Shown piece by piece: positions 9,588 to 35,282 of a stretch of DNA of 64,000 nucleotides. Location: positions 8,703 through 72,702 of the forward strand of contig JACPZX010000016.1 of NCBI GenBank assembly GCA_016195325.1. The letters are read 5' to 3'. The stretch's first letter is position 1, and each line of letters begins with the position of its first letter. The notes below the pieces were generated by a model. The model had not been told where the DNA came from and did no database searches. It saw nothing but the letters and a program-made list of their open reading frames with translations. The position numbers and the translations under genes were made by a program. The DNA is from Acidobacteriota bacterium (GTDB taxonomy: Bacteria; Acidobacteriota; Polarisedimenticolia; JACPZX01).

Positions 9588-9897
9588 ACCTCACCCTCCC
9601 CGGCACCGCGTTGCGTCCGGCCACGAGGATGAGAAAGAGATCGGCGCTCACAGGCTGCACGACGCAGGACCACGCCTCCAGCCGGAGAGTCAGATCCCTC
9701 ACGCCGCCGCCCCCGGCGTTGCGCCCGAGGGCCTCCACCGATCGCACCACCGGGGTGAGCTCGGCGGCGATGACCTCCGGCGACGGTCCGCCCGGCGAGG
9801 CCCAGTGCTCGACGACCATGCCGTCGCGCCCGACGAGCGCGGCGGCCTCACACCCCGGCAGACGTCGGGCCGCTTCTTCCAGCGTCGTCCTGAACAT
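9541..9897 (-). CDS. Roadblock/LC7 (MglB-like) domain protein
   Basis: 118 aa with the pattern GCEAAALVGRDGMVVEHW…LTPVVRSVEAL…VRDLTLRLEAWSCVVQPVSADLFLILVAGRNA, typical of the Roadblock/LC7 fold. Sits immediately downstream of the TPR/FimV-C-like gene on the same strand. Confidence 0.6.
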   Translation of the reverse strand: MFRTTLEEAARRLPGCEAAALVGRDGMVVEHWASPGGPSPEVIAAELTPVVRSVEALGRNAGGGGVRDLTLRLEAWSCVVQPVSADLFLILVAGRNAVPGRVRFEASRAAARLESDLR

Positions 9898-11164: not shown

Positions 11165-11261
11165 GAGTGTCGGGCCGGTGCGCCCGGATCGATCGGGCGC
11201 GGATCGGCGGCCCATGTTATCCGAGAGCGGCGCCCGCCATCAAGAGACGGCGTGCATGCGC

Positions 11262-11340: not shown

Positions 11341-11865
11341 CTATTGATCGACGAAGTTGACCGAGAAGCCCGCGAACGGGGTTTCCGCCGGATTTCCGGC
11401 GAGATCCTGTCCCTTGAACCGGACGAAGCACTGCCACGAATCGCCGACCGCCGCGCCGGTGGCGATCTTCTCGGCGACCGTGACCGCGGTCGTCGTGATG
11501 TCGGCCGAGCCGTTGACCGGGATGGTGAATCCCCCGGGGCCCGTCGCGCGGGCCACGGTGTTGCCGGCGAAGGTGCAGACGCGCTCGGACGACGTGACGG
11601 CGATGTCGCTGAAATTGCCGGTGGTCGTCGTGCGGGCCAGATTCTTCACCGTGACCGACGTCGAGTCGTCGTGGAGGGGCGTCGGGAGGCCCGTGTTCGG
11701 GTCCGTCGGCGTGATGTCCGACAGGACGAGCGCCGGGTTCACCTTCTCGATGGTGAGCAGGCCTTGACCCTGCGTCGGGTCGTCCAGGTTCTTGTTGCAG
11801 CCCGGGAGCAGGAGCCCCGAGACCGCCACGAGGACCAGGAGAAGGACTTTCACTTCGCTTCGCAT
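11341..11865 (-). CDS. Small lipoprotein of unknown function encoded directly downstream of pilQ
   Basis: ATG at 11865 is preceded by a strong SD (GAGGAGGG, 5-nt spacer). The signal peptide ends in a lipobox (LLLPG-C). The mature protein is ~150 aa, Thr/Gly/Ala-rich with a beta-strand pattern and two Cys residues. Only a 10-nt gap separates it from pilQ. Confidence 0.7.
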   Translation of the reverse strand: MRSEVKVLLLVLVAVSGLLLPGCNKNLDDPTQGQGLLTIEKVNPALVLSDITPTDPNTGLPTPLHDDSTSVTVKNLARTTTTGNFSDIAVTSSERVCTFAGNTVARATGPGGFTIPVNGSADITTTAVTVAEKIATGAAVGDSWQCFVRFKGQDLAGNPAETPFAGFSVNFVDQ

Positions 11866-11875
11866 CGAGCCCTCC

Positions 11876-18438: not shown

Positions 18439-20601
18439 TCACGCGCCCATCTGGCGCTCGACGTGATGCACTCCATCGACGCTCCGAAGCTTCTCGATCA
18501 CCCGCTCGAGATGCGGCCGATCCTGCACGTCGATGACGAGGGATATCCGCCCCTTCCCGTCCGCGGTCGTGCGCGCCTCCACGTCGCGGATGTTGGTCCG
18601 CTCGTCGGCGATGACGGAGGTCAGCCTCGCGAGCATCCCCGGGCGGTCCTCCGTGTGGACGACGATCGGGACGTCGTACAGCCCCGACGCCGGTTGGTGC
18701 TCGTCCCCCTCCCAGGCCACCTCGATCCTCCGGTGGGGATCGAAGAGGAGGTTCTCCACGTTCGGGCACCGGGCGTTGTGGACGGAGACCCCCTTCCCGA
18801 ACGTGATGTAACCCACGATCGCGTCGCCGCGGATCGGCTTGCAGCAGCGCGCCAGAGTGACCATGACGTCGTCGGACCCCGACACGCGCACGCGGCTGTC
18901 GCCCGCGCGCACCGCCGGCCTGGGGTGCGCGGGCTCCTCCCTCGGGTGCAGCACGTCCCTGGGCACCAGCTCCTCGAAGAGCTGGTGGATCGTCAGCTTC
19001 CCGTACCCGACGTGGACGTGGAAGTCGTCGAGGGTCTCGCACCCGAGCTTCCTCAGCGCCCGATCGAGCGTCCCGTCCGCGGCGAGCGTCCTCAGGCTCA
19101 GCTTGTACCGCTTGAGCTCGCGCTCGAACATCGCGCGCCCGACGTCGAGGCTCCGCCCCCGCTCGTGGGCGTTCAGCCAATGGCGGATCTTGTGCCGCGC
19201 GTGCGACGTCTTGACCGACGCGAGCCAGTCCCGGCTGGGCCTCTGCGCGGGTGACGTCAGGATCTCGATCACGTCGCCGTTCTTCAGCTCGCTCTTGATG
19301 GGAACCAGCCGGCCGTTGATGCGGGCGCCCGTGCAGTGGTTGCCGACCTCGCTGTGGATCGAGTACGCGAAGTCGATGGCGGTCGCGCCCCGGGGGAAGG
19401 CCCGGACCTCTCCACGGGGGGTGAACGTGTAGACCTCCTCCGCGTAGAGATCGAGCTTGACCGCGTGGAGGAACTCGGTCGAGTCCTTGGTCTCCTTCTG
19501 GAGATCGAGGAGGCGCTGAATCCACTGGAAGCCCTGCTCTTCCCGCCTGTCGAACGAGCGCCCCTCCTTGTATTTCCAGTGCGCGGCGATCCCCTGCTCG
19601 GCGACGGCGTGCATCTCGCGGGTCCGGATCTGCACCTCGAACGGGTAGCCGCGATCGGTCATCACCGACGTGTGAAGGCTCTGGTAGAGGTTGGGCTTCG
19701 GCATCGCGATGAAGTCCTTGAACCGGCCCGGCACGGGGCGCCACCCCTCCTGCCCGTGAATGACCCCGAGGGCGGCGTAGCAGCTCTTCACCGTGTCGGT
19801 GATGATCCGGAACGCCACGTAGTCGTAGACGCGATCGACGTCGATGTGCTGGACCCGCATCTTCTTGTAGATCGAGTACAGGTGCTTGACGCGCCCCTTG
19901 ATCTCGGCGGGCACGCCGGCCTCCCGCAGCTTCTCCTCGATCGTGCGGCGGATCTCCGAGATGTACTCCTCGCTGACGCGCCGCTGCTCGTCGAGCTTGC
20001 GGGAGAGCATCTCGAATCCCGGAGCGTCGAGGTGCTGGAGCGACAGGTCCTCGAGCTCGGCCTTGATGCGCCCCATCCCGAGGCGGTTGGCGAGCGGCGC
20101 GTAGATCTCGATGGTCTCGCGCGCGATCCGCTCCTGCTTCTCCGCGGAGAGGAACTCGAGGGTGCGCATGTTGTGGAGCCGATCGGCGAGCTTGACGAGG
20201 ATCACCCGGATGTCGTCGAACATCGCCAGCATCATCTTGCGGAAGTTCTCCGCCTGCTTCTCCTCCTCGCTCGTGAACGTGATGCGGGAGATCTTGCTCA
20301 GCGCCTCGACGAGGCTGGCGACCTCCGCCCCGAAGTACTCCTCGATGACCTCGCGCGTCGCGAGGGTGTCCTCGATGACGTCGTGGAGGAGGCCGCCGAT
20401 GACGCTGACCACGTCGAGCTTCAGATCGGCCAGGATGTACGCGACCTCGAGGGGGTGGGTCAGGTACGGCTCGCCGGACCGGCGCACCTGGCCGCGGTGC
20501 GCCATCGCGGAGAAGACGTAGGCCCTGCGGAGCAGATCGAAGTCGGCCTCCGGATGGTAGGCCGCGATCTTCTCCTGGATGTCCTCGAAACGGACCTTCA
20601 T
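18439..20601 (-). CDS. relA: Bifunctional (p)ppGpp synthetase/hydrolase (RelA/SpoT family)
   Basis: HD hydrolase domain (HRGQVRRSGEPYLTHPLEVA…HD), synthetase domain, TGS and ACT domains. The start is set at ATG 20601 (MKVRFEDIQ…), which has a GGAG SD. The track ORF extends further upstream to 20727. Confidence 0.92.
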   Translation of the reverse strand: MKVRFEDIQEKIAAYHPEADFDLLRRAYVFSAMAHRGQVRRSGEPYLTHPLEVAYILADLKLDVVSVIGGLLHDVIEDTLATREVIEEYFGAEVASLVEALSKISRITFTSEEEKQAENFRKMMLAMFDDIRVILVKLADRLHNMRTLEFLSAEKQERIARETIEIYAPLANRLGMGRIKAELEDLSLQHLDAPGFEMLSRKLDEQRRVSEEYISEIRRTIEEKLREAGVPAEIKGRVKHLYSIYKKMRVQHIDVDRVYDYVAFRIITDTVKSCYAALGVIHGQEGWRPVPGRFKDFIAMPKPNLYQSLHTSVMTDRGYPFEVQIRTREMHAVAEQGIAAHWKYKEGRSFDRREEQGFQWIQRLLDLQKETKDSTEFLHAVKLDLYAEEVYTFTPRGEVRAFPRGATAIDFAYSIHSEVGNHCTGARINGRLVPIKSELKNGDVIEILTSPAQRPSRDWLASVKTSHARHKIRHWLNAHERGRSLDVGRAMFERELKRYKLSLRTLAADGTLDRALRKLGCETLDDFHVHVGYGKLTIHQLFEELVPRDVLHPREEPAHPRPAVRAGDSRVRVSGSDDVMVTLARCCKPIRGDAIVGYITFGKGVSVHNARCPNVENLLFDPHRRIEVAWEGDEHQPASGLYDVPIVVHTEDRPGMLARLTSVIADERTNIRDVEARTTADGKGRISLVIDVQDRPHLERVIEKLRSVDGVHHVERQMGA

Positions 20602-20678
20602 GGGAGGGCTCTCCGAGCCGGGAATATACACCGGCTCCCGGAGGAGGCGGGGCGCCGGAGCGCCCGCGCGGCGGGGCG

Positions 20679-23915: not shown

Positions 23916-24692
23916 ATGCGCGCGGCTAGCCTCGCGGCCATGGCCGACTGGACGACGCTTCAGACCGATTCCGGGGACCGCGCCCTCGTCTGCGGCCCGC
24001 TGGCCGGCGCCGGGCTCGCTCACATGTTCACGCTCCGCCCGGCCGGGACGATCGCGTCCGGCACCGCCATCCCCGCCGGCCTGCTCGCGCGGATCGCCCT
24101 CGACGGGATTCCGATCTCGAGGCCGAGGCAGGTTCACGGCTCGATCGTCGCGACCCCCGCCGGCGCGAGCGGCGGGACCTCCCCCCCGGAGGCGGACGCC
24201 GTGGCCGTCACGACCGGGGGCGGGGCGGCCGCCATCGCGACCGCCGACTGCGTCGGCGCGATTCTCCTCGACCCCGGGTCGGGGGCCTTCGCCGTCGTGC
24301 ACGCGGGGTGGCGCGGAACGCTCGCGAGGGTCGTGCCCGCCGCGATCGAGACGCTCACGATCCGCGGCGGCGCGCGCCCAGGGCGGATGGTGATGGCGAT
24401 GGGGCCGTCGATCCGGGGGTGCTGTTACGAGGTCGGCGAGGAGGTCCTCGCGCCGTTCCGCCGCTCCTTTCCCGACGCGGACAGGCGCGGGATCTTCGGT
24501 GAGCGCGGAGGGCGTGAGACGGTCGACCTCGTGGCCGCGAACCGGGCCCTGGCCGAACAGTGCGGCCTCGATCCCCTCGGGATCCACGCCTCGGATCTGT
24601 GCACGTCGTGCCGCACGGATCTCTGCTGGTCGTATCGGAAGGCCGGCGCGGGCGCCGGCCGGATGTGGACTCTCGCCGGTCGCCCCGGCTAG
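23916..24692 (+). CDS. pgeF: Peptidoglycan editing factor PgeF (YfiH/DUF152 laccase-domain protein)
   Basis: Motifs QVHGSIV, ADA, ADCVGAIL, HAGWRG, GPSIRGCCYEVGEEV and CTSC. The start is ambiguous among ATGs at 23886, 23916 and 23940. Confidence 0.8.
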   Translation: MRAASLAAMADWTTLQTDSGDRALVCGPLAGAGLAHMFTLRPAGTIASGTAIPAGLLARIALDGIPISRPRQVHGSIVATPAGASGGTSPPEADAVAVTTGGGAAAIATADCVGAILLDPGSGAFAVVHAGWRGTLARVVPAAIETLTIRGGARPGRMVMAMGPSIRGCCYEVGEEVLAPFRRSFPDADRRGIFGERGGRETVDLVAANRALAEQCGLDPLGIHASDLCTSCRTDLCWSYRKAGAGAGRMWTLAGRPG

Positions 24693-26050
24693 CCCTTCGA
24701 GGCGGCCTTGCCCGGAGGCGCGAGCTTCTTGAGCTCCTGCACCATCTGCTTCGCCTCCGCGGCCTTCGCGTCCTTCGGGCTCAGCTTCAGAAACGTCTCG
24801 AAGTGGCCGACCGCTCCGGGGAAATCGCCGAGCTTCACCAGCGTGTAGGCGAGCTGGAAGTGGGCCATGGCGTGGTTCGGGTCCTTCTCGAGCACCTTCT
24901 TGTAGTAGACGTCCGCCTTCTGCGGCTCGTCGCGGTTGAAGGCGAGATTCCCCAGGTTGTAGAGAGACTTTCCCGTGGGATCGCGATCCCCGAGCTTCGT
25001 GTACATCTCCTCTTCCTTCGCCTTGTTCCCCGTCTCTTTGTACAGCGCGGCGAGGGAGGTGTACGCGTCGAGGTCGTCGGGGTTGTGCGCGATCATCCCC
25101 TGGTACAGCTCGATCGCCTTGTCGGGCTGTCCCGTGTCGGAGTACAGGCCCGCGAGCGCGTCGACGACCGCCTCGCTGTCCGGGCTCAGCGTCTTCTCGT
25201 CCTCGAGCGCCTGCACCGCCTGGATCTTTCGTCCCTTCTTGTCGTACACGCGCGCGAGATAGAAGCTGACGCCGGTCTTCGTCGGATCGAGAGCCTTCGC
25301 CTTCTTCAGCGACGTTTCCGCGTCGGCAAGCGCGTCGGTCTCGAACTGCGAGCGGCCGAGCCGGTAGTAGCCTTCCGCGTTGTTCGGATCGTCGGGGGCC
25401 TTCTCCACCGACTCCTTCAGGAGCGGGATCGCGCCGGCGTAGTCCTTCTGATCGAGCTTGTCCATCGCCAGCTCGAACGACGTCTTCTTGTCGCCGGTGC
25501 CCGCCGTCGGCGGCGGGAGCGCCTGCCCCGGCTCGGCCGGCTTGCCCGGATCGGTCGCGGGCACCCCCTTGTACTCGGCGTAGAGCTTGTTGACGGTCGC
25601 CATGTGCTTGTCGGGAGTGGTGAGGACCCAGTCGATCTTGTTCCTCGACTTGCTGGTCAGGTCGCCCGTGGCGAAGACGTGGACCTTCTTCTCGAACTCC
25701 TGCTTCTCGTTGAAGAAGTATGTGATGGAGTTCTTGACGCCGTCCCCGTTGGTGATCTCGGAGAGCTGGCGGACCACCAGGTAGCCTTCCTTCTTCGCGA
25801 TCAGGATGTACTCGCCGGGCTCGACGATATAGAGGTAGGAGCCCTTCTTGCTCGTCTTCGCCGGCTTGAGCAGGGCGTTGGTGTCAACTCTCCTGAGGCT
25901 GATCTCCACGGCCTCGAGCGGATTCCCCGCTTCGTCTGCGGCGATCCCTTCGATGCGCGCGACGACCTGGCAGAAGGCCGGGACGGCGAAAAAGGACGAG
26001 ACGGCGAGAACGAGGGACGCGGCGGCTGTCGATCGGGTTGGATTTTTCAT
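24689..26050 (-). CDS. Secreted protein: CarboxypepD_reg-like beta-sandwich followed by a multi-TPR domain
   Basis: The ATG at 26050 gives MKNPTRSTAAASLVLAVSSFFAVPAFCQ (signal peptide). This is followed by a transthyretin/CarbopepD_reg-like segment and then about eight TPR-like repeats. Confidence 0.7.
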   Translation of the reverse strand: MKNPTRSTAAASLVLAVSSFFAVPAFCQVVARIEGIAADEAGNPLEAVEISLRRVDTNALLKPAKTSKKGSYLYIVEPGEYILIAKKEGYLVVRQLSEITNGDGVKNSITYFFNEKQEFEKKVHVFATGDLTSKSRNKIDWVLTTPDKHMATVNKLYAEYKGVPATDPGKPAEPGQALPPPTAGTGDKKTSFELAMDKLDQKDYAGAIPLLKESVEKAPDDPNNAEGYYRLGRSQFETDALADAETSLKKAKALDPTKTGVSFYLARVYDKKGRKIQAVQALEDEKTLSPDSEAVVDALAGLYSDTGQPDKAIELYQGMIAHNPDDLDAYTSLAALYKETGNKAKEEEMYTKLGDRDPTGKSLYNLGNLAFNRDEPQKADVYYKKVLEKDPNHAMAHFQLAYTLVKLGDFPGAVGHFETFLKLSPKDAKAAEAKQMVQELKKLAPPGKAASKG

Positions 26051-26266
26051 GGGCTCCTTTGAGGGCGCGGAGGAGCGCGGACTCCAGCAGGCAGTATATT
26101 CGGGTGACGAGGCCGGCGGCAAGGGACGAACCCCAATCGTTGACACGACTTCGCTTCTGGTTGTAATGTTCCGACCCTGGTGAGGAACATGGCCTGAAGT
26201 AAGCCACTCGCTCCGCTCTCGATGTCCCTGCCTCACTCGCTCCCCGCCCTGCCGGGATAGGAGCCC

Positions 26267-28180
26267 ATGGCGCTTCAGAAGCTCGGCAAGTACGAGATCG
26301 TCGGAGAACTGGGTCGCGGCGCCATGGGCGTCGTCTACAAGGCCTTCGATCCGGTCCTCGAGCGCGAGGTCGCTCTCAAGACGATGATGGCGTCCATGAG
26401 CGGCATGGACGCGGAGAGCAAGGCCCGCTTCTACCGCGAGGCCCGCTCGGCGGCCAAGCTCACCCACCGGAACATCGTCACCATCTACGACATGGGCGAG
26501 GAAGAGGGAATCCCCTTCATCGCGATGGAGTTCCTCGACGGGGTCGACCTGCACAAGAAGATGAAGCGCGACGGCCCGATGCCCCTCAAGGAGGGGCTCA
26601 AGATCACCAGCCAGATCCTGCACGGCCTGAACTACGCGCACCAGTTCCAGATCGTGCACCGCGACATCAAGCCCGCCAACGTCTACATCCTGAAGAACGG
26701 GACCGCGAAGATCCTCGACTTCGGCATCGCCAAGCTCGCCAGCTCCGAGATGACGCGCACGGGGATGGTCCTGGGGACGGTCGACTACATGTCGCCCGAG
26801 CAGATCCGCGCCGACAAGATGGTGGACGGGCGCTCCGATCTCTTCTCGGCGGGGGTCATCCTCTTCGAGATGATGGCGGGGTGCAAGCCGTTCCCCGGCG
26901 AGACGATCACGCAGGTCATGTTCAAGATCGTCCACGATTCGCCCGGCGAGATGCCCACGGAGCGGGAGCTCCCGCCGAGGCTCGTCGCCATCTCCCGCCG
27001 GGCGCTCGAGAAGGACCCCGCCGTCCGTTTCCAGACCGGCGAGGACTTCGCGAACGATCTCGAGGCGGTGATTCGCGACATCGACGCCGAGCTGACGACG
27101 GTCCGCCAGATGGCGCCCGCGAGCCTCGACCCGCGAGCCGGCATCTCGAACGCGCGGCGGCTCTTCGAAGGAGGCTCCTTCATCGAGTCGGCCGCGATGC
27201 TCCGCGAGGTGCTGAAGAAGGATCCGGAGAACCGGGAGGCGACGGCGCTCTTCACCGTCGTCGAGCGCCGCCTCGGCGGCAGCGACAAGACGGTGATGCT
27301 CGACGGCGAGGGGGCGCAGAAGGCGTCCGGGTCCTCGGGGTCCGGGGCGCGCTCGGGGAGCATCGAGCAGATCCTCGCCGAGATTGAAGAGGAGCGGAAG
27401 ACCGGGCACGACCCGGCCCGGAGCGACGCCGGCAATCCCAACCTGACGCTGAGGCTCGACGATTCGGGGCCGCAGCCCGCGCCCCCGGTGGCGGCGAAGC
27501 CGCAGACGCAGACACCCTCGCGCCCCGCGCCCCCTCCGCCGGTGAGCCCGGATCGTCCCACCGAGCAGTTCACCCCTCCCTCCCGCGCCGTCAGCAGGCC
27601 GGAGCCCCTCCCGAAGGGGGAGAGGAAGACGGAGGCGAAGCCCTCCCCGACCGCCACGCCGAAACCTGCCGCCATGAGGCAGCCCGCCGCTTCGCCGGCC
27701 GCGGCGCGCTCGCCCCTGCCGATGATCCTGGGCGGCGCCGCCGTCCTCGCGCTCATCGTGGGGGTGGTGCTCTACATGAGGAGCTCGAAGCCCGCCCAAC
27801 CCTCCGTCACGACGATCCCTCAGAGCGCCCCGTCGGGGGCCCCCTCCGGGGCGCCGCCGGCGTCCACGGGCGCCCCGGCCGCGGCGACGACCGCGGGGTT
27901 CCTCGCGATCGACGCCGAGCCGTGGGCCGAGGTCACGGCGATCCGCGAGGCAGGCGGGGGGAAGGCGACGGCGCTGCCGGCGGAGGCGGGGCACGCGGGA
28001 CCGACGACCCCCCTCGTCGTCCCTCTCCCACCGGGCCGCTACGAGGTCGTCCTCAGGAATCCCGAGTTCCAGGAAGTGACCCTGCGCGACGTGCAGATCG
28101 CGCCGGGGGAGTGGACCCGAAAGCACCAGATGATGCCCGGATTCTCCTACAAGTCGAAGATGCCGGCGGGAGTTCCTTGA
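26267..28180 (+). CDS. Hanks-type Ser/Thr protein kinase with a C-terminal TM helix and an extracytoplasmic PEGA-like domain
   Basis: GELGRGAMGVVYKA…VALK, HRDIKPANV, DFGIAK and SPEQ motifs. A Pro-rich linker leads to TM helix ILGGAAVLALIVGVVLYM and a ~120-aa C-terminal PEGA-like beta domain. Confidence 0.9.
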   Translation: MALQKLGKYEIVGELGRGAMGVVYKAFDPVLEREVALKTMMASMSGMDAESKARFYREARSAAKLTHRNIVTIYDMGEEEGIPFIAMEFLDGVDLHKKMKRDGPMPLKEGLKITSQILHGLNYAHQFQIVHRDIKPANVYILKNGTAKILDFGIAKLASSEMTRTGMVLGTVDYMSPEQIRADKMVDGRSDLFSAGVILFEMMAGCKPFPGETITQVMFKIVHDSPGEMPTERELPPRLVAISRRALEKDPAVRFQTGEDFANDLEAVIRDIDAELTTVRQMAPASLDPRAGISNARRLFEGGSFIESAAMLREVLKKDPENREATALFTVVERRLGGSDKTVMLDGEGAQKASGSSGSGARSGSIEQILAEIEEERKTGHDPARSDAGNPNLTLRLDDSGPQPAPPVAAKPQTQTPSRPAPPPPVSPDRPTEQFTPPSRAVSRPEPLPKGERKTEAKPSPTATPKPAAMRQPAASPAAARSPLPMILGGAAVLALIVGVVLYMRSSKPAQPSVTTIPQSAPSGAPSGAPPASTGAPAAATTAGFLAIDAEPWAEVTAIREAGGGKATALPAEAGHAGPTTPLVVPLPPGRYEVVLRNPEFQEVTLRDVQIAPGEWTRKHQMMPGFSYKSKMPAGVP

Positions 28181-28270
28181 GCCGGCGCCGACGATTCGAG
28201 TTCACACGGCCCATCCCATCGGTTGGACGACGGAGTCCAGAGGGGCCCAGGAAACCATGGAGGCAGATGC

Positions 28271-29602
28271 ATGAGAAGTGAAACGCGATTCATCGCCCGG
28301 GCGGCCGCCCTGACGCTCGCCGTGCTCCTCGCTGGATCGGCCGCGCTCTTCGCGATCACCGACGAAGAGGTCTTCCGCGACTTCCGGTTCAACCTCAGCA
28401 ACCCGGGAGCGCGGTCGATCGCGCTCGGCGGCGCGTTCATCGCCGTCGCCGACGACGCGACCGCCTCGCTCGCGAACCCGGCCGGCCTGATGCTCCTCGC
28501 GCGCCCCGAGTTCTTCACCGAGATCCGCGACTCGAAGGCCGACTCGTCGTCGATCCAGCAGGCGTTCGGCGGCGGCCAGGGAATCGTCTCCACGACCGAT
28601 CCGCGGGCGACCTTCGGCCCGTCGTTCATCTCCTACGTCTACCCGTGGAAGCGCTTCGCGGCCGGCATCTCGCGCCTCGAGCTCAACACCACCAACAACA
28701 ACACCTCGAACGCGTTCGCGCTGTCGTTCGACCCGAACAACCCGTCGAACCTCTTCGTCCTGGGCGGGCGCGGATCGATCCAGTCCGACCTCTCGGTCTG
28801 GAACGTCTCCGGCGCGGCCAAGATCACCGACAAGATCTCCGTCGGCGCGACCGTGGCCATCGGCGTCCTCAGCCTGCGCTCGAGCGTCACCAACACCCTG
28901 ACCGACAGCAGCGACCCGAACAGCCCGACCTTCAACATCCCGCAGACGCTCTACACCACCGACATCAACTCCACCGACACCGACTTCGCCTTCAACGCCG
29001 GAGTCCACTGGCGCCCGTGGTCGAAGCTCTCCTTCGGCGCCGTCTACCGCGGCGGCATGAAGTTCAAGGTGGCGGAGACCGTCGCCAACGACGGATTCTT
29101 CGGGGGCGGCTTCGCGGCGTCGCTCGGGAGCCCGCTGAGCACGACCTTCAACACCCCCGACAGCTGGGGCGCGGGCGCGGCGTGGCGGCCGCTCGCGGCG
29201 CTCACCGTCTCGCTCGACTGGGTGCACATCAAGTACTCGCAGCTCCTCGACGGCTTCCAGTCCGGGCTGAACGTGCTGACGATCTTCGACCAGCAGGCGA
29301 AGTTCACGATCCACGACACCGACGAGTTCCATCTCGGCGGCGAGTGGGTCTTCACCGCGGGATCGGTCCCGTGGGCCGTCCGCGGCGGCGCGTACAGCGA
29401 GCACAACGCCCGCGTCTTCGCGGACTTCAAGAACGGGCAGTCGAGCTTCTCGAGCAACGACTCGTTCCCCCCGCGCGACGTCGTCACGCACTACACCGTC
29501 GGCACGGGCGTCGTCGTCAAGGACCGGTTCCAGATCGACGCGGCGGCCGACTTCTCGAAACTGGCGAATGCCTATGTCGTCTCGACGATCTTCCGGTTCT
29601 GA
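28271..29602 (+). CDS. FadL/TodX-family outer-membrane beta-barrel (hydrophobic-compound channel)
   Basis: ATG at 28271 with a GGAGG SD. Signal peptide, the FadL N-terminal signature GARSIALGGAFIAVADDATASLANPAGL, alternating beta-strand pattern and a C-terminal aromatic residue (…VSTIFRF). Confidence 0.7.
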   Translation: MRSETRFIARAAALTLAVLLAGSAALFAITDEEVFRDFRFNLSNPGARSIALGGAFIAVADDATASLANPAGLMLLARPEFFTEIRDSKADSSSIQQAFGGGQGIVSTTDPRATFGPSFISYVYPWKRFAAGISRLELNTTNNNTSNAFALSFDPNNPSNLFVLGGRGSIQSDLSVWNVSGAAKITDKISVGATVAIGVLSLRSSVTNTLTDSSDPNSPTFNIPQTLYTTDINSTDTDFAFNAGVHWRPWSKLSFGAVYRGGMKFKVAETVANDGFFGGGFAASLGSPLSTTFNTPDSWGAGAAWRPLAALTVSLDWVHIKYSQLLDGFQSGLNVLTIFDQQAKFTIHDTDEFHLGGEWVFTAGSVPWAVRGGAYSEHNARVFADFKNGQSSFSSNDSFPPRDVVTHYTVGTGVVVKDRFQIDAAADFSKLANAYVVSTIFRF

Positions 29603-30407
29603 CCCGCGGCGTCACGCCGCGGTGACGATCTGGCTCCTCGGGGCCGCGATCTGGGCGTCCGTCCTGCCCGCCGTCGCGGCCCCTCTCCCCCAGGCCTCGC
29701 CGACGACGCCGGGCTCGCCTCCCTGGTACGAGGCGTACCAGAGGGCGGTGGCCGACGCCGAGCTCGAGAACTGGGAGGGGGTCGAGGCGAAGATCGATCA
29801 GGCCCTCAAGCTCAACGCGAAGTCGGAGAGAAACGTGCGCACGTACGGGATGTGGCACGCGTCGTACATCCCGTACTACTACCTCGGCATGGCCCAGTAC
29901 CACATGGGGAAGGGGAACGAGGCCCTCAAGAGCCTGCAGAGGGAGGAGGCGGCCGGCGTCGTGCAGCACGACCCTGTCGCGTACCTGAAGCTCCGGAAGA
30001 TCTCGGACGCGATCGAGGCGGGGCCCAAGGCCCCGCCGTCCGCCGCCGCGACCTCGACGGCGGCTCCACCCGCCGCCTCGAAGCCGGCCACCGCCGCCTC
30101 GACGAAGGCCGACGCCCTCGTGGGCGGCCTGCAGGCCTTCTTCCAGGGTAACTACGACAGGTCGATCTCCCTCTTCCAGGAAGAGATGAAGCGCACGACC
30201 ACCGACGATCTGACGCTCCACCTCTACCTCGGCATGGCCTACGCCGGCAAGGCGTCGGAGCAGCCGGGGCAGAAGGAGATCTGGCGGAACCTCGCCATCC
30301 TCGAGTTCCAGCGCGTGCACGCGCTCGACTCCGCGTACACGCTCGCCTCTGGGGTCTTCTCGGAGGAGATGGTCGTGCTGTTCAACGAGGCGCAGAAGAA
30401 GAAATGA
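29568..30407 (+). CDS. Secreted TPR-like protein, paralog A
   Basis: Signal peptide (…VTIWLLGAAIWASVLPAVAA) and TPR-like helices containing the motif SYIPYYYLGMAQYH. The start is ambiguous (ATG 29568/29574 or GTG 29622), and it overlaps the end of the FadL-like gene. Confidence 0.6.
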   Translation: MPMSSRRSSGSDPRRHAAVTIWLLGAAIWASVLPAVAAPLPQASPTTPGSPPWYEAYQRAVADAELENWEGVEAKIDQALKLNAKSERNVRTYGMWHASYIPYYYLGMAQYHMGKGNEALKSLQREEAAGVVQHDPVAYLKLRKISDAIEAGPKAPPSAAATSTAAPPAASKPATAASTKADALVGGLQAFFQGNYDRSISLFQEEMKRTTTDDLTLHLYLGMAYAGKASEQPGQKEIWRNLAILEFQRVHALDSAYTLASGVFSEEMVVLFNEAQKKK

Positions 30408-31792
30408 AGGCCGTTCGCGTCGCCGCCGCCGTGCTTTTCCTGCTCGCGCTCGCCCTCCCCTCGCCCGCGTTCGCGGGATGGGAGTCGAGCTACAAGGACG
30501 GCAAGGCGGCGTACGACGCGGGCGAGTACGCGAAGGCGATCAAGCTCCTGAAGGAGGCGATCGACGCCAAGGGGGACGAGAAGGCCAACGCCCTCAAGTC
30601 CAGCGGCATGTTCTTCGAGTCCTACCTCCCGCACTACTACCTCGGCATGGCGCTCTTCCAGAAGAAGGACTTCAAGGGCGCCATCGACGAGCTCAACGCC
30701 AGCGAGGAGGCGAAGGTCATCCAGAAGTCGAAGGACCTCTTCGCCCAGCTGAGGCAGACGCGCACCGCCGCCGAGGCCGCCGCCGCGGCGGGCGGGGCGC
30801 CCCCCCAGGTCGCGCAGAACACCCCTCCCCCCCCGGCGGCGACACCGCCGAAGGAGACTCCCCCCGAGACGGTGAAGGAGACGCCGAAAGAGACGCCCCC
30901 TCCCGTGAAGGAGGCGCCGAAGCCCGCCCCCATTCAACCCGTCCCGATGGGCCCCGACCCCGCCCTGACCTCCGCCCTCAACGCCGCGGCGGCCGACATC
31001 GCGGCGGCGCAGAAGTTCGCCGTCGACAACGCGAAGTACCTCGACGACGGCGAGAAGCGCCATCTCGACACCCTCGCCACCGACATCCGCGGCGGGCAAA
31101 CGCCGGCCGCCGTCGGCGCGAAACGCCAGGAGCTCGACCGCGCGATCGCCGAACTCCGCGGCAAGAGCGCCGAGCGGAAGAAGGCCGAGGACGATCGCCT
31201 CGCGCAGCAGAGGAAAGATCAGGAGGCCCTCCAGGCGCGCGCGGCGCAGAACAAGGCCCTCGCCGACGCCGTGGCGAAGGCCAACCCCGTCTTCACCGAG
31301 GCCGAAGGATTTCTCGCCGACAACCGCACGAACCTCGCCCCCGCCGACGCCCAGAAGATCCAGGGGCTCCTGGAAGGGGCGCGCCGCGGCGCGACCCCCG
31401 ACGCCGTCACGAAGAGCGCCGCCGAGCTGAAGGGGGCGGTCAGCGCCGCGCGCCGCTCCCTCGACGATCGGCGCGCCGCCACGGCGCGAGAGGCCCAGGC
31501 CCAGTACGGGCGCGCCGTCGAGGCCTACTTCAACGGCCACTACGACGACGCGCTCCCCGCTCTTCTCCAGGCGAGCGGCGGCCTCCCGAAGGACGCGACG
31601 CTCAAGGGGATGCTCGGGTCCACCTATTACAAGAAGTACCTCCTCTCGAACGGCGCCGACACCCTCTCGAAGCAGCAGGCCGAGGAGGCCTTCCGCTCGG
31701 CGGTGTCGGTGGATCGCAGCTTCTCGCTCGACCCCCGCTACTTCCCGCCGAAGATCGTCGCGTACTTCAAAGAGGTCACCGGCCGGAGGTGA
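30404..31792 (+). CDS. Secreted TPR-like protein, paralog B, with a Pro-rich linker and coiled-coil region
   Basis: Signal peptide MKAVRVAAAVLFLLALALPSPAFA, the motif SYLPHYYLGMALFQ shared with paralog A, a PPPPAATPPKETPPETVKETPKETPPP linker, and long Ala/Glu/Arg-rich helices. ATGA overlap with paralog A. Confidence 0.7.
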   Translation: MKAVRVAAAVLFLLALALPSPAFAGWESSYKDGKAAYDAGEYAKAIKLLKEAIDAKGDEKANALKSSGMFFESYLPHYYLGMALFQKKDFKGAIDELNASEEAKVIQKSKDLFAQLRQTRTAAEAAAAAGGAPPQVAQNTPPPPAATPPKETPPETVKETPKETPPPVKEAPKPAPIQPVPMGPDPALTSALNAAAADIAAAQKFAVDNAKYLDDGEKRHLDTLATDIRGGQTPAAVGAKRQELDRAIAELRGKSAERKKAEDDRLAQQRKDQEALQARAAQNKALADAVAKANPVFTEAEGFLADNRTNLAPADAQKIQGLLEGARRGATPDAVTKSAAELKGAVSAARRSLDDRRAATAREAQAQYGRAVEAYFNGHYDDALPALLQASGGLPKDATLKGMLGSTYYKKYLLSNGADTLSKQQAEEAFRSAVSVDRSFSLDPRYFPPKIVAYFKEVTGRR

Positions 31793-31847
31793 GCGAAGCT
31801 CAGCCGCCCGTTCCAGCTCCTCGCCGAGTTGACGACTCGCGCGTGGA

Positions 31848-32280
31848 CATGACCGAGCTGGTGATGCCCGGCGACGCGAACGTCCTCGGAAACGTCTTCG
31901 GCGGCCGCGTGATGGCCCTCATCGACAAGGCGGCGGCGATGGTCGGCATCCGCCACTGCCGCTCGATCGTGGTCACGGCGTCGGTCGACAGCATCGACTT
32001 CATCGCGCCGATCAAGCTCGCCGACATCATGAGCTTCCACGCGCGCATCACGCAGGCTTTCCGGACGTCTTTGGAAGTGCGCGTGGACGTCCACTGCGAG
32101 GATCCGCGCTCGGGGCGGCGGCTGTTGGCGACCTCCGCCTTCGCCACGATGGTGAGCCTCGGCCCTGACGGGAAGCCCCAGCCCGTGCCGCCTCTCGTCC
32201 TCGAGTCCGACGCCGAGCGCGCCGAGGCGGCGGCCGCCGACAAGCGACGAGCCCTGCGCCTCGCCCGCCGCGGCGCGTGA
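31848..32280 (+). CDS. Hotdog-fold acyl-CoA thioesterase (YciA-like)
   Basis: MTELVMPGDANVLGNVFGGRVMALIDKAAAM…, characteristic of YciA/4HBT family thioesterases. Confidence 0.75.
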
Positions 32281-33815
32281 GCATCACCGGGTCTCGGACC
32301 GAAATACCTCCTTCGCGGTTGTCGCCGGGGAATTCCTTCTCGCGGGAGGCCCGGCTCCTTGGGCCGGACGAAATCCATGCGTGGTCCGCTGGAGCGGGGG
32401 ATCTCCTCGAGCTGTACGGGCTGACTCTTCTCGAGTGTCGAGTGATCCCGCTGCGGGAGGCGGTGCGTCCGGTGCGCGGGGAGTTGGAGACCGTGCATCG
32501 TCCCCGGCTCGCGGTGGCGGCCGCGGTGGCGGCGCTGGCGGTGACGGTGCGGGGCCGAGGGGCGCTGCTCGATCTACCTTCTGATCAACGCGCCGCGGCG
32601 AAGGAGTCGATCAAGGAGCGGAACGATCGCGCGGCGGCTTGCGCGCTGGCGGAGGGGCTCTTCTCGCTCGCCTCGGCATCGGATTCCGTCTGCGAGATCG
32701 CGATCGGCGAGGGGGTGCGAAAGAAGCCCGACGAGCGCGGGTCGAACCCGACGCTCTACGCGGGACAGAGGTTTGGCTCATCTGGTTCGGTCACGTACTC
32801 GGTGGCCGTCGATGCGGTCGAGGGAACATCCAAGAGCACGGTGGCGGAGGGCTCGTCCGGGTGCCTTTTCTACATCACGCCGGCGGCGATCCGGAGGGTG
32901 CCCGACCTCTACTTCAACCGGTGTCACCTGTTCGAGGTCCCGGGAGTGCACGTCGATTCGGATCTGGGGGAGATCCTGGCGGCGATCTGTCGGTCTCGCG
33001 GGGGGATCGACGTCTTCTCGCTCGATCGGCCGCGGCATCCGCACGCGCTGATGGCGTCGCTCGGGGCGAACGTGCGGACCGATGCGGACGGCGACGCCTT
33101 TCCCGTGGTCGCCACGGGACTTCGCTGGGGCGTCTTCCCGGACGACGGGCGGTGTCTCGATGGCGTCGTCGGGAACATCGGCGGCGCGGCGGAGGTGATC
33201 GCCTCGTCGGCGGCGGCGCATTACCTCGGTGTCCGATCGTCGGTCCGGTTCGCGGCCTCGTCGATCTCGCGGTGGGAGGATCGGTACGCGTTCTCGTCTT
33301 CGGATGTCGAGACGATTCGCGCCGCGGGTTTCGACGAGTCGGTGGTCTACCGGATCGAGGATCTCGTGCCGGGGATCGATTCCGCAGACGGTCTCTTCGT
33401 GGCGTCGGCGATCACAGACAACGCGCACATTCCTCTTCTCGACGCGGCGGTGTGGGGGTCGAACTTCGCGGAGGCCTCGGTGCTGATCGTGGGCGCTTCT
33501 GGGGAGGCTTCGATTTTCCGGCTGTCATTCGGATTCGCCTCGGCGGACGCCGCCGCACGGCGGCTCACGCCGATTCTGGACGGGCTGCTCGCGTTGCCGC
33601 CAGAGGAGATGAAGCAGTCGATCCGGCAGGCGCTCAGCTCGCCGAGCGGCGCGAGGCGGCTGAGGCACGAGTTTCAGTCGACGTACTACCGGTACTTCAC
33701 GGAGGAGGGGGGCCGATTCAAGTTGGACCTGGCTTCGACCGACGATGGGGAATCGCATCATGCGATCCGGTTCCTGCGCACACTCGTAGAACTGGCGCCG
33801 GAGTGGCTCGGCTGA
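32277..33815 (+). CDS. Class II fructose-1,6-bisphosphatase (GlpX) family protein with N- and C-terminal extensions
   Basis: The central ~330 aa align to GlpX: CEIAIGEGVRKKPDE…TLYAGQRFGSSGSVTYSVAVDAVEGTS ~ [21 protein letters not shown]…DIAVDPIEGT; DRPRHPHALMASLGANVRTDADGDAFPVV ~ AKPRHDAVIAEMQQLGVRVFAIPDGDVAA; NIGGAAEVIASSAAAHYLG ~ GIGGAPEGVVSAAVIRALDG. The GTG start overlaps the thioesterase stop (GTGA). Total length 512 aa, against ~330 for canonical GlpX. Confidence 0.65.
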   Translation: MSITGSRTEIPPSRLSPGNSFSREARLLGPDEIHAWSAGAGDLLELYGLTLLECRVIPLREAVRPVRGELETVHRPRLAVAAAVAALAVTVRGRGALLDLPSDQRAAAKESIKERNDRAAACALAEGLFSLASASDSVCEIAIGEGVRKKPDERGSNPTLYAGQRFGSSGSVTYSVAVDAVEGTSKSTVAEGSSGCLFYITPAAIRRVPDLYFNRCHLFEVPGVHVDSDLGEILAAICRSRGGIDVFSLDRPRHPHALMASLGANVRTDADGDAFPVVATGLRWGVFPDDGRCLDGVVGNIGGAAEVIASSAAAHYLGVRSSVRFAASSISRWEDRYAFSSSDVETIRAAGFDESVVYRIEDLVPGIDSADGLFVASAITDNAHIPLLDAAVWGSNFAEASVLIVGASGEASIFRLSFGFASADAAARRLTPILDGLLALPPEEMKQSIRQALSSPSGARRLRHEFQSTYYRYFTEEGGRFKLDLASTDDGESHHAIRFLRTLVELAPEWLG

Positions 33816-33824
33816 ATCCGGCGA

Positions 33825-35282
33825 TCAATCCTCCGAGATCGCCCCTGAAGGCCCGGTTTCGATCGGCGCGGCCGACTTCGCCCCCGCCCTCCCCGACCCC
33901 GGCGGCGGCATCCTCACCTCGATCGGCTTCACCCACTTCGCGACAGTGGCCGCCCCGCCGTCCACGCGGAGCTGCTTGAAGAGGAACTCGAACTTCGCCT
34001 CGAGCGTCGCCCGCATCGCCTCCCGGATGGACGAAGGCAGCCCCCAGAGCTGAGCCTTGAACGGACCCCAGGTCCTCTTCCGCGCCTTGTAGTTGAACTG
34101 CTCGTCGGTCATCCCGGCCTTCCGCTCGTCGGCGCAGTGCACCCCGCACCACGCGTACATCTCCGCCCGAAGCTCCTTAGGCAACGCCGGATGATCGAAG
34201 AGGATGTTCTGGAACTCCGTCGCGAGATGGACCTCCGCGGCCCCGGCCTCCGGAAACTTCCCGAACGCCTCGGCAGGCAGAGTCGAAGCCCCGTGCTGCA
34301 CCGACCCCGCCATCCCGTACTCTCGGCGCGCGATGTCGGTGATCGAGCGAAGCACGCCAAAATCCAGAGCGACCTTCGCGACGGTGCCGTCCGCCAGAGG
34401 CACCCCGCCGTGTGATGTCCCCGTTTGAACCGAGATCTTGCTGGGCCCCCGAACGCCCCCGAGCCGCGCGAACTCGGCCGAAAACCCGGACATGAAGGTA
34501 CGGAACTCCTCCGGCGTCGAGTTCTTTCCGCCGACCTCTCCGATCTCGGCGCCGATGGAGATGACGACCCCCGCCGGCTGCCTCTTCCTCACGAGAGCCC
34601 CCAGGCCCGCCGCCTCCGTGAAGTTTTCCCGCTGCTGCTCGACGAGGGACGGGCGATCGAGGATGACGAGCGTCGACGAATCAATGTCGATGTTGTAGAA
34701 GCCGGCCGCTACCGCATCGACCACCAGCGCGCGAAGGGCCGTGAGCTCCCCTTCCCGCGACGCCCCGCCGGCCTGGTACTTCTTGGGCGAAACCTGGAAG
34801 TGATCCCCCTGGATGAAGAGGGGGCCGGTGAGCCCCTCCCGAAGCGCCGCCGCGATGACGACCGTCGCGTACTCGGCGGGCTTCTGGAAGGTGTACCCCA
34901 TCTCCGAGCGCGCCAGCTCGAAGACGACCGGCCCGGCCGAGAGCTTCTTCATCGTGCGGACGACGGCGCGCGCGCTGTCGTAGGCGAGGCCGCGGAGGTT
35001 CAACGCCGGGGTCGTGAAGCCCGAGGCCTCGCCCCGCCCCATCGCGTCGTAGAGAGGCTGGATCGACGCGGGGACGAGACCCCGTAGCCTCGCGAGCTCG
35101 TGGATGAGCCAGCGCGCGGTCTCCTGCTCGTCGTCCGAGCCGAAGACCGCCTTCTCGACGAGGCGATCGATCACCTCGCCGGTGAGGGCCTTCGGATCGG
35201 TGAGCGAGACGTCCCACGCCGCCGAGACGGAGACGATGTCCTTGAACGAGTCGATGAGCGCGCGCGCGCCGCCTGATGACAC
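33825..35282 (-). CDS. Class II (metal-dependent) fructose/tagatose-bisphosphate aldolase family protein, long form
   Basis: 485 aa. FIQGDHF, SIGAEIGEVGG, SVQTGTSHGG and GSVQHGASTLP correspond to the conserved TDH / E-x-G-x-x-GG-E-E / GN-x-HG / HG-x-SG blocks of class II aldolases. Confidence 0.65.
   Translation of the reverse strand: MSSGGARALIDSFKDIVSVSAAWDVSLTDPKALTGEVIDRLVEKAVFGSDDEQETARWLIHELARLRGLVPASIQPLYDAMGRGEASGFTTPALNLRGLAYDSARAVVRTMKKLSAGPVVFELARSEMGYTFQKPAEYATVVIAAALREGLTGPLFIQGDHFQVSPKKYQAGGASREGELTALRALVVDAVAAGFYNIDIDSSTLVILDRPSLVEQQRENFTEAAGLGALVRKRQPAGVVISIGAEIGEVGGKNSTPEEFRTFMSGFSAEFARLGGVRGPSKISVQTGTSHGGVPLADGTVAKVALDFGVLRSITDIARREYGMAGSVQHGASTLPAEAFGKFPEAGAAEVHLATEFQNILFDHPALPKELRAEMYAWCGVHCADERKAGMTDEQFNYKARKRTWGPFKAQLWGLPSSIREAMRATLEAKFEFLFKQLRVDGGAATVAKWVKPIEVRMPPPGSGRAGAKSAAPIETGPSGAISED

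Follow-up and report, generated by a model that had tools for sequence, protein, structure and literature searches.

How extracellular information crosses two membranes to reach the Hanks-type kinases of Gram-negative bacteria is largely unknown. Four adjacent genes in a 64,000-nucleotide (nt) chromosome segment of an Acidobacteriota bacterium (contig JACPZX010000016.1, 68% GC; hereafter the window) raise the question of whether their products could form one such route. The genes lie on the + strand and encode a Ser/Thr kinase, a FadL-fold outer-membrane barrel, and two secreted proteins with similarity to tetratricopeptide repeat (TPR) proteins, designated here P3 and P4. Results of our comparative analysis suggest, with what we regard as about an even chance of being right, that the products of the locus form a trans-envelope signalling module of three physically linked components, in which a signal would most likely be carried from the outer membrane into the cell. 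An earlier note on this DNA had proposed that these genes form a linked module spanning the inner membrane, the periplasm and the outer membrane, and their linkage proves to be conserved across phyla and gene orders. The note had also held that the combination is not a described system; in a search of the literature on FadL together with kinase, STAND, caspase, TPR or PEGA, no account came to light in which a FadL-like barrel is linked to a kinase or to the N-terminal domain that P3 and P4 have in common.

The four genes are tightly packed. A 90-nt gap separates the kinase gene (26267-28180, 637 amino acids (aa)) from the FadL-like gene (28271-29602, 443 aa), which overlaps the P3 gene (29568-30407, 279 aa) by 35 nt, and the P3 gene in turn overlaps the P4 gene (30404-31792, 462 aa) by the four nucleotides ATGA. 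The co-directional layout is thus the one described previously, and no intrinsic-terminator-like sites were found on the + strand between 26267 and 31792. The open reading frame (ORF) of the FadL-like gene is open from TTG 28223, and its start was placed at ATG 28271 because a clean signal peptide then results, ending in ALFA directly before ITDEE.

The first of the four products is predicted to be a catalytically intact, single-pass Hanks-type Ser/Thr kinase. It is composed, from the N-terminus, of a cytoplasmic kinase domain (aa 9-256, nt 26291-27034, +), a low-complexity juxtamembrane region, a single transmembrane (TM) helix indicated by a hydropathy scan (aa 485-504, PMILGGAAVLALIVGVVLYM, nt 27719-27778, +), a Pro/Ala/Ser-rich periplasmic linker, and a small beta-sandwich ectodomain (aa ~544-625, nt 27896-28141, +). 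The Pfam model Pkinase (PF00069) matches aa 9-256 with 176.2 bits (cut-off 31.7, E = 1.1e-51), and the catalytic motifs are all intact on closer inspection: GRGAMGVV (aa 16-23), VALK with K38, HRDIKPAN (131-138), DFG (151-153) and SPE (176-178). The match to the NCBIfam model of PknB/Stk1 PASTA kinases (NF033483) is limited to aa 7-275 and reaches 309 bits against a cut-off of 450, and a Pfam scan revealed no PASTA repeats in the protein. Of the previous description of this protein as a kinase with a PEGA-like ectodomain, the kinase is therefore well founded, and the ectodomain can be called PEGA-like, but its membership in the PEGA family is not established. Its matches to PEGA (PF08308; 14.7-15 bits, cut-off 20.8, E = 0.02-0.03) and CarboxypepD_reg (18.6-19.2 bits, cut-off 32.3, E = 0.0025) are both below threshold, and sub-threshold PEGA matches were obtained for five of 14 homologous ectodomains (best E = 1.1e-3). 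Kinases encoded in related loci of different phyla nevertheless share this domain, with the consensus G.L.IDA.PWA.V...TP..L.LP.G.Y.V.

The assignment of the second product as an outer-membrane channel of FadL type holds at the level of fold. The Pfam model Toluene_X (PF03349) matches its aa 49-425 with 56.9 bits (cut-off 29.7, E = 1.7e-15). In the AlphaFold2 (AF2) model (predicted local distance difference test score (pLDDT) 87.6, predicted template-modelling score (pTM) 0.82), the N-terminal ~78 residues lie outside the barrel and the strands follow, and the model and Foldseek comparisons point to a 14-stranded barrel with an N-terminal hatch, so the barrel prediction, on which the earlier note had made its proposal depend, holds. 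The best Foldseek matches in the PDB are E. coli FadL structures (3pgs, 1t1l; E = 4.5e-18, template-modelling scores 0.62-0.66) at a sequence identity of ~15%, and further matches include TbuX, CymD and TodX, as well as BamG and PorV, with FadL and TbuX ranked above BamG and PorV. The protein comprises a signal peptide (aa 1-28), a conserved N-terminal hatch (ITDEEVFRDFRFNLSNPGARS...DDATASLANPAGL), the plug motif NPA (aa 69-71, nt 28475-28483), and a C-terminus ending in STIFRF. In a 40-sequence alignment of the barrel family, N69 and P70 of the NPA motif are invariant and the hatch is strongly conserved (consensus NPGARS...DDATAA..NPAGL), while the mature N-terminus (TDEE.FRDFRFN) is strongly conserved within subtypes. 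The barrel is a divergent member of the FadL superfamily and an ortholog of no characterised protein, since the curated models score far below their cut-offs: BamG (NF053685) with 37.3 bits against 250 (E = 1.7e-9), the PorV/PorQ model PorV_fam (NF033709) with 26.5 bits against 90 (E = 4.4e-6, hatch aa 42-75 only), and, last in this order, the FadL equivalog (PRK10716) with 14.6 bits against 585 (E = 0.0099). No genes of the type IX secretion system (T9SS) were found in the annotated neighbourhood of the barrel gene. Two barrel homologs of 566 aa (P0064 and P0067) carry a beta-rich C-terminal extension of ~110 aa beyond the barrel, which is neither TPR nor related to the domains of P3 and P4 described below.

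P3 and P4 had been regarded as two periplasmic TPR proteins and as paralogs sharing the motif SY(L/I)P(H/Y)YYLGMA. That they are true paralogs is borne out by BLASTP, with E = 8e-10 for their N-terminal and 1e-4 for their C-terminal domains, and the motif was located in both (SYIPYYYLGMA, aa 99-109 of P3; SYLPHYYLGMA, aa 73-83 of P4). We named the ~100-aa N-terminal domain P3N and the ~90-aa C-terminal domain P4C. P3 consists of a signal peptide, P3N (aa ~43-145, nt 29694-30002, +), a Pro/Ala-rich linker, and a P4C-type domain (aa ~183-279). P4, which is identical to the NCBI protein HY049_02770 annotated as hypothetical, consists of a signal peptide ending in PAFA before GW, P3N (aa ~22-122, nt 30467-30769, +), a disordered Pro/Ala-rich linker (aa 130-185), a long helical middle part (aa 186-360), and P4C (aa 361-462, nt 31484-31789, +). 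Neither protein has a lipobox or a T9SS C-terminal domain. Of the former description, secretion and a TPR-like fold stand, whereas the Pfam TPR models remain below threshold (P3: TPR_2, 18.2 bits vs. 27; P4: TPR_1, 27.3 vs. 27.8, and TPR_2, 24.7 vs. 27). In the AF2 model of P4 (pLDDT 86.3), P3N folds into two helical hairpins and has an inserted beta-hairpin, which is made up of its most conserved motif (residues 63-73); the disordered linker (aa 130-185), long helices (aa 186-376), and a TPR-like C-terminal domain follow. The helix-turn-helix repeats of TPR proteins are thus recognizable in the P3/P4 family at fold level. Structure searches for a specific relative of P4 returned generic TPR matches only.

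When six-frame ORFs of related loci were searched with the window proteins, P3N was the only part of P3 and P4 that recurred widely. Its 40-sequence alignment, which covers several phyla, is almost free of gaps and has the consensus WY..Y..A..A...g.W..A...L..Al.....R.R.YGM....Y.P..YLG.A.y.lG....Al......E..G.i. Of 1.84 billion cluster representatives searched exhaustively with the P3N profile in HMMER, 2,093 matched at E<=1e-10 and 4,433 at E<=1e-3. A typical member resembles P4: the signal peptide is followed by P3N in one to three copies, then by a variable middle part that is helical or rich in Pro and Ala, and finally by P4C, the last being found by a simple phmmer search in 70 of 168 family members. 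The source annotations of these proteins read 'hypothetical protein' or 'TPR repeat protein', and among Pfam and NCBIfam models we found none for P3N or P4C, only scattered TPR matches. Defining the family by a signal peptide, the P3N motifs W/Y..Y...A, R.YGM....Y.P..YLG.A and G.I/V, and a conserved ~90-aa C-terminal domain, all of which are present in P3 and P4, we assign the two proteins, from their sequences, to a specific, large and unannotated two-domain family rather than to generic TPR scaffolds.

The linkage of the three families was followed in two scans. The first, seeded with the barrel alignment in one genome per GTDB species, yielded 80 loci, in which partners were counted within 7 kb; the reciprocal one was seeded in metagenomes by the P3N motif only (a narrower alignment) and likewise yielded 80 loci. 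Most loci are metagenome-assembled genome (MAG) or metagenome contigs, and their genes were called with a simple caller based on GC content at third codon positions or as stop-to-stop ORFs. A kinase, a P3N protein and a FadL-like barrel recur jointly, in several gene orders, in Acidobacteriota, Lysobacterales, Woeseiaceae, Ignavibacteriota and Bacteroidota. In two close relatives (L002 and L003, barrel identity 58% and 54%), the entire block from YfiH through the thioesterase gene that follows P4 is retained. At 42% barrel identity (L004), the surroundings are wholly different, but genes for a P3N-TPR-STAND protein and a STAND-kinase are still found ahead of that for the barrel, and at 33% (L007), a 1242-aa kinase with a PEGA-like tail and a P4-like protein are divergent from it. 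Four arrangements were distinguished among the barrel-seeded loci. The window order of kinase, barrel, P3N and P3N is also found in an Ignavibacteriota MAG (L038) and in a metagenome locus (L108), and a Bacteroidota MAG (L023) has barrel, P3N and P3N at the start of a contig. The barrel gene is convergent with a P3N-then-kinase pair in Lysobacterales and Thermoanaerobaculia (L016, L017, L019, L021, L024, L044, L074). The third arrangement combines one or more barrels with a P3N-TPR-TM-STAND NTPase and a kinase with STAND and winged helix-turn-helix (wHTH) domains, and in the fourth, the barrel is followed by a fusion of P3N to a caspase, a trypsin-like protease, or a CsgG/LpoB-like protein with Glucodextran_B.

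In numbers, 16 of the 80 barrel-seeded loci have both a P3N protein and a kinase, 12 a P3N protein only (several of these being truncated contigs), eight a kinase only, and 44 neither. The association of P3N and kinase among them (Fisher odds ratio 7.3, p=2e-4) is indicative only, because related loci are included that are not independent. Clustering of all neighbours of the barrels places kinases (28 loci) and two P3N clusters (23 and 16 loci) at the top, followed by clade-specific housekeeping genes. When barrels are clustered at ~40% identity, P3N linkage is seen in nearly every subcluster, the exception being one Thermoanaerobaculia clade in a housekeeping context, with P3N in 0 of 18 loci, which serves as an internal negative control. 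Loci of this exceptional type (L025, L031, L039, L050-L052, L065, L067, L073, L078, L080, L081, L084, L086) have a fixed context, with proS (prolyl-tRNA synthetase) or a Secretin_N protein gene upstream, genes for D-Ala-D-Ala dipeptidase and a luciferase-like monooxygenase downstream, and no P3N or kinase gene nearby; the mature N-terminus of their barrels reads QNTDIE.LSGLQFNFGNPGARS.

The reciprocal scan gives a concordant picture. Outside the window's own clade, a same-strand kinase gene has its end less than 1.5 kb upstream in 28 of the 45 P3N-seeded loci with visible upstream sequence, and among those with at least 4 kb on both sides, a barrel lies within 4 kb in 11 of 20 and both barrel and kinase in 10 of 20. 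Unsupervised clustering of the neighbours in the 30 longest P3N-seeded loci recovered a kinase in 25, a P3N/P4C protein in 25, and a FadL-like barrel in 14. Neither in this nor in the barrel-seeded clustering did a fourth recurrent partner emerge beyond the three families, and no FHA protein, phosphatase (PP2C) or regulator was recurrent among the clustered neighbours. The tightest conserved pair is therefore the kinase and the P3N protein, with the barrel as a third, frequent partner, and the linkage, whose conservation in related genomes had been suggested as a check, holds far beyond the window's own clade and in differing gene orders.

Certain proteins of related loci unite the parts that are separate in the window. 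In one (L164), the kinase (aa 1-270), a TM helix (397-415) and a periplasmic P3N form a single chain, and in another (L128), a signal peptide and P3N precede a TM helix (411-429) and a cytoplasmic kinase. P0189, P0130 and the 236-aa gene products of L124, L140 and L141 join a signal peptide and P3N to a PEGA-like domain of the type found in the kinases. Proteins of ~800 aa encoded in L035, L041, L048 and L066 begin with a signal peptide and P3N with TPRs, cross the membrane by a TM helix near residue 480-513, and have their STAND NTPase in the cytoplasm, and their genes adjoin that of a STAND-wHTH-kinase. In every case of a fused signalling protein, P3N is periplasmic and the signalling domain cytoplasmic.

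In secreted caspase (Peptidase_C14) proteins, P3N also forms the N-terminal module, and in a trypsin-like protein it follows the protease domain; it is present as well in proteins that combine Glucodextran_B with CsgG/LpoB-like domains. The genes of such caspase, protease and CsgG-like proteins (L006:8397-10967 and 11713-13818; L087:4895-6193; L013:8259-10553) lie less than ~1 kb downstream of a FadL-like barrel gene, the fusion gene following the barrel gene directly in L006 and L013. A larger variant locus, found in MAGs of Sulfomarinibacteraceae and Holophagae (L035, L041, L046, L048, L066; e.g., L048:2639-12615), comprises two FadL-like barrels, a ~860-aa protein of the beta-lactamase family, an OmpW-like barrel, a cytoplasmic nSTAND1-wHTH-kinase, and the P3N-TPR-TM-STAND NTPase. 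Proteins of nSTAND1 or ATPase_2 type are confined to related loci (e.g., L004, L035, L041, L047, L066), and in the window itself, a scan of the genes in 18439-39999 revealed no STAND NTPase.

A trans-envelope signalling module is the reading we favour because the three families are linked across phyla, in varied gene orders and from reciprocal seeds, because fusions join P3N to kinases, to the kinase-type ectodomain and to transmembrane STAND NTPases, because the topology fits, with signal peptides in P3 and P4 and the kinase ectodomain located past the TM helix, and because the overlaps of 4 and 35 nt and the lack of terminator-like sites on the + strand inside the cluster fit an operon. Possibly, P3 and P4 act as periplasmic adaptors or co-sensors that bridge the periplasmic face of the barrel and the ectodomain of the kinase. 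A change at the barrel, be it a hydrophobic ligand passing the plug and lateral gate in the manner of FadL or a disturbance of the outer membrane, would then be relayed via the P3N proteins to the kinase and result in the phosphorylation of cytoplasmic targets. Pro/Ala-rich linkers are present in all three periplasmic parts, those of P3, P4 and the kinase, and fit proteins that reach across the periplasm, and the invariant NPA plug motif argues for a gating movement of FadL type and so for a hydrophobic ligand, as the earlier note had supposed.

Several observations weigh against this reading. The 44 barrel-seeded loci with neither partner within 7 kb imply that the barrel subfamily is broader than the module or that the partners are encoded elsewhere in those genomes. 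The clustering of neighbours revealed no recurrent linked gene for a kinase substrate, an FHA protein or a phosphatase, and none of 120 barrel homologs proved to be fused to P3N. That P3N is also attached to caspases that are secreted, to a trypsin-like protease and to CsgG/LpoB-like proteins indicates that its role may be recruitment rather than signalling. Furthermore, most of the counted loci lie on MAG or metagenome contigs annotated with a home-made gene caller, and kinship among the loci inflates their significance.

The earlier note had let the module begin at 24689 with a divergent TPR gene, and in this respect, only its four-gene core stands. The divergent gene (24689-26050, - strand) encodes a secreted protein of 453 aa with Pfam hits to CarboxypepD_reg and multiple TPRs, and its start codon, ATG 26050, was confirmed. 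A 4HBT-family acyl-CoA thioesterase (31825-32280, +; Pfam 4HBT, E = 8e-20) is encoded directly downstream of P4. Both genes were rejected as module members because they are kept only in the close relatives L002 and L003; the divergent gene lies outside the conserved core and the thioesterase gene probably outside the module. An ORF of 1145 aa (24689-28126, - strand), antisense to the kinase gene, was rejected as a gene, being a high-GC run-on of the divergent gene. Many long antisense or out-of-frame ORFs of up to 1145 aa overlap real genes in the window at its GC content, so that ORF length alone is misleading there. An ORF related to the divergent TPR/CarboxypepD_reg protein (9851-11239, - strand; phmmer E = 2.3e-9) represents a paralog ~14 kb upstream.

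The module is embedded in a housekeeping region, with genes for RelA/SpoT (18439-20631, - strand), SecF, SecD, YajC and a YfiH/Cu-oxidase_4 protein upstream, and genes for the thioesterase, a GlpX-like protein, a class II aldolase-like protein, a large LVIVD/CarboxypepD_reg/TSP3 protein and RNase G downstream. The GlpX-like protein (512 aa, within 32277-35282) has a long N-terminal extension and a weak match to FBPase_glpX (E = 2.8e-19), and the adjoining class II aldolase-like gene (485 aa, within the same interval) is convergent with it. In L002 and L003, a phosphofructokinase gene lies between the thioesterase and GlpX-like genes, upstream of the latter; it is missing from the window, where the thioesterase gene abuts the GlpX-like gene. 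The large protein (988 aa, 35402-38368, - strand) combines LVIVD repeats, two CarboxypepD_reg domains and thrombospondin type 3 repeats.

The linkage data and the properties of the barrel bear also on other explanations of the locus. The barrel could be a hub in the manner of BamG or PorV, which transports no small molecule and docks P3N proteins, be they adaptors, kinase partners, caspases or proteases, at the outer membrane, with the kinase monitoring or regulating the complex, for instance in envelope biogenesis or integrity. Protein-docking barrels of the FadL fold do exist, namely BamG (PMC12578637) and PorV, both are among the Foldseek matches, and both precede FadL in the order of NCBIfam matches, although these are sub-threshold; a mature N-terminus strongly conserved within subtypes and the fusion of P3N to varied periplasmic enzymes encoded beside the barrel would suit docking as well. 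We nevertheless hold a hub to be unlikely, given that FadL, BamG and PorV models all score far below their cut-offs, that Foldseek places the transporters FadL and TbuX over BamG and PorV, that P3 and P4 are devoid of a lipobox and of a T9SS C-terminal domain, and that the family invariably retains the NPA motif of the plug, a hallmark of those FadL channels that transport. That same motif, together with the plug and the fold, is what one would expect if the genes formed an operon for the uptake of hydrophobic nutrients, with the barrel as importer of fatty acids or hydrocarbons, P3 and P4 as periplasmic carriers or chaperones of the cargo, the thioesterase as the enzyme that processes it, and the kinase as no more than a local regulator or an unrelated neighbour. 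The thioesterase gene directly downstream, kept in L002 and L003, and the Treponema pallidum FadL orthologs with periplasmic TPR-containing extensions proposed for cargo hand-over (PMC8407342) are in line with uptake. However, the thioesterase gene is unlinked outside the close clade, and neither fadD nor beta-oxidation or aromatic-degradation genes are recurrent among the neighbours; the tightest partner of P3N is the kinase, direct fusions included, its alternative partners are STAND NTPases, caspases and proteases instead of metabolic enzymes, and the barrel reaches only 14.6 of the 585 bits demanded by the curated FadL equivalog, which together make uptake quite improbable in our estimation.

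There is, we believe, only a small chance that the locus is an envelope conflict or defence sensor, a system of STAND, caspase or kinase type that would detect an invader or toxin at the surface and trigger a kinase- or protease-mediated response. The idea draws on the related loci in which the barrel and P3N are paired with STAND NTPases of nSTAND1 or ATPase_2 type and STAND-wHTH-kinases, or with caspase/CHAT proteins or a trypsin-like protease. The window version has neither a STAND NTPase nor a protease and thus does not belong to the STAND-NTPase conflict systems of Kaur et al. 2020 (PMC7159879), a reference survey that does not mention outer-membrane barrels; moreover, it occupies a syntenic housekeeping region (RelA/SpoT, SecDF, YajC, YfiH, RNase G), and PADLOC returned generic kinase-domain matches only and none for the barrel, P3 or P4. 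As to the possibility that unrelated envelope genes lie side by side by chance in a genome dense in genes and high in GC, kinases and TPR proteins are numerous in Acidobacteriota, and more than half of the barrel-seeded loci are without partners. Such a coincidence is strongly disfavoured, to the point of being next to negligible, by the recurrence of the linkage in different phyla and gene orders and from either seed, by the existence of domain fusions, and by there being only one kinase gene in the whole 64-kb window.

A comparison with known systems places the proposed signalling module near several of them and within none. In having a 14-stranded barrel, an N-terminal plug, the NPA motif and a Pfam score past the gathering threshold, the window barrel is similar to the FadL, TodX and TbuX channels (Toluene_X, PF03349), but it differs from them in its distinctive N-terminus (TDEE.FRDFRFN) and hatch consensus, in scoring far below the FadL equivalog cut-off, and in the linkage of its gene to those of a kinase and P3N proteins instead of lipid or aromatic catabolism genes. 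BamG of the Bacteroidota beta-barrel assembly machinery (BAM) and PorV of T9SS are likewise FadL-fold barrels that act through protein partners encoded alongside; the lateral opening of BamG holds the N-terminus of BamH against BamG's own conserved N-terminus, and BamG2 and BamH2 are encoded in an operon (PMC12578637). Here, in contrast, the partners are soluble TPR-like proteins with neither a lipid anchor nor a T9SS C-terminal domain, and a Ser/Thr kinase is part of the unit. A precedent for cooperation between a FadL-like barrel and a periplasmic helical module with TPR motifs is offered by the T. pallidum FadL orthologs TP0548, TP0859 and TP0865, whose C-terminal periplasmic TPR-containing extensions were proposed to make protein-protein contacts (PMC8407342), although in the window, the barrel and the TPR-like parts are separate genes, P3N has a specific beta-hairpin insert and motif, and T. 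pallidum has no kinase in this role.

The kinase shares with PknB/Stk1 (PASTA) and PknD (beta-propeller) an N-terminal cytoplasmic kinase domain, one TM helix, an extracytoplasmic sensor domain and a full set of catalytic motifs, and differs from them in its small PEGA-like beta-sandwich and in its diderm setting, where it would have partners of its own in the periplasm and the outer membrane. In the Rcs (RcsF-OMP to IgaA to RcsCDB) and FecA-FecR-FecI systems, an outer-membrane barrel and a periplasm-spanning partner relay surface information to an inner-membrane signalling protein. The likeness of the proposed module to these is one of logic only, a functional analogy: the parts are non-homologous, the output would be Ser/Thr phosphorylation, and RcsF and IgaA have no counterparts in it. 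No STN domain, anti-sigma factor or extracytoplasmic function (ECF) sigma factor was found in the four proteins or their immediate neighbours, which sets the locus apart from TonB-dependent transducers. Regulators of the LpoP/LpoA/LpoB type, in which a TPR or globular domain is combined with a long disordered linker, resemble P3 and P4 at the generic TPR level only; the latter have no lipobox, and no gene of a penicillin-binding protein is linked to theirs.

More tentatively, and with the balance of probability somewhat against it, the locus may represent an unrecognised and widespread trans-envelope system of diderm bacteria, in which a FadL-fold barrel would be a surface receptor or gate, P3N, whose beta-hairpin bears the motif R.YGM....Y.P, would dock on the barrel, and the outputs would be interchangeable, namely a Hanks kinase with a PEGA-like ectodomain in the window and transmembrane STAND NTPases, caspases or proteases elsewhere. 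Each part comes from, or resembles, a known superfamily (the Hanks kinases, the FadL fold, and the TPR fold), and we are similarly hesitant as to whether the module deserves the name of a new system.

With regard to the question posed at the outset, the locus provides a defined and conserved three-part candidate pathway. It also draws attention to a large uncharacterised protein family with ~2,100 cluster representatives (E<=1e-10), without a Pfam or NCBIfam model and with clear genomic partners, and it suggests a further, signalling-linked role of the FadL fold, the known roles of which have lately been widened from transport to subunits of BAM and T9SS. If the wider reading is true, the system would be a counterpart of Rcs and FecAIR based on a eukaryote-like kinase, and signalling would be the third role of the FadL fold beside transport and docking in BAM and T9SS. 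As the pair of P3N and barrel is elsewhere joined with STAND NTPases, caspases and proteases, solving one version of it would inform the understanding of envelope systems of soil and sediment bacteria.

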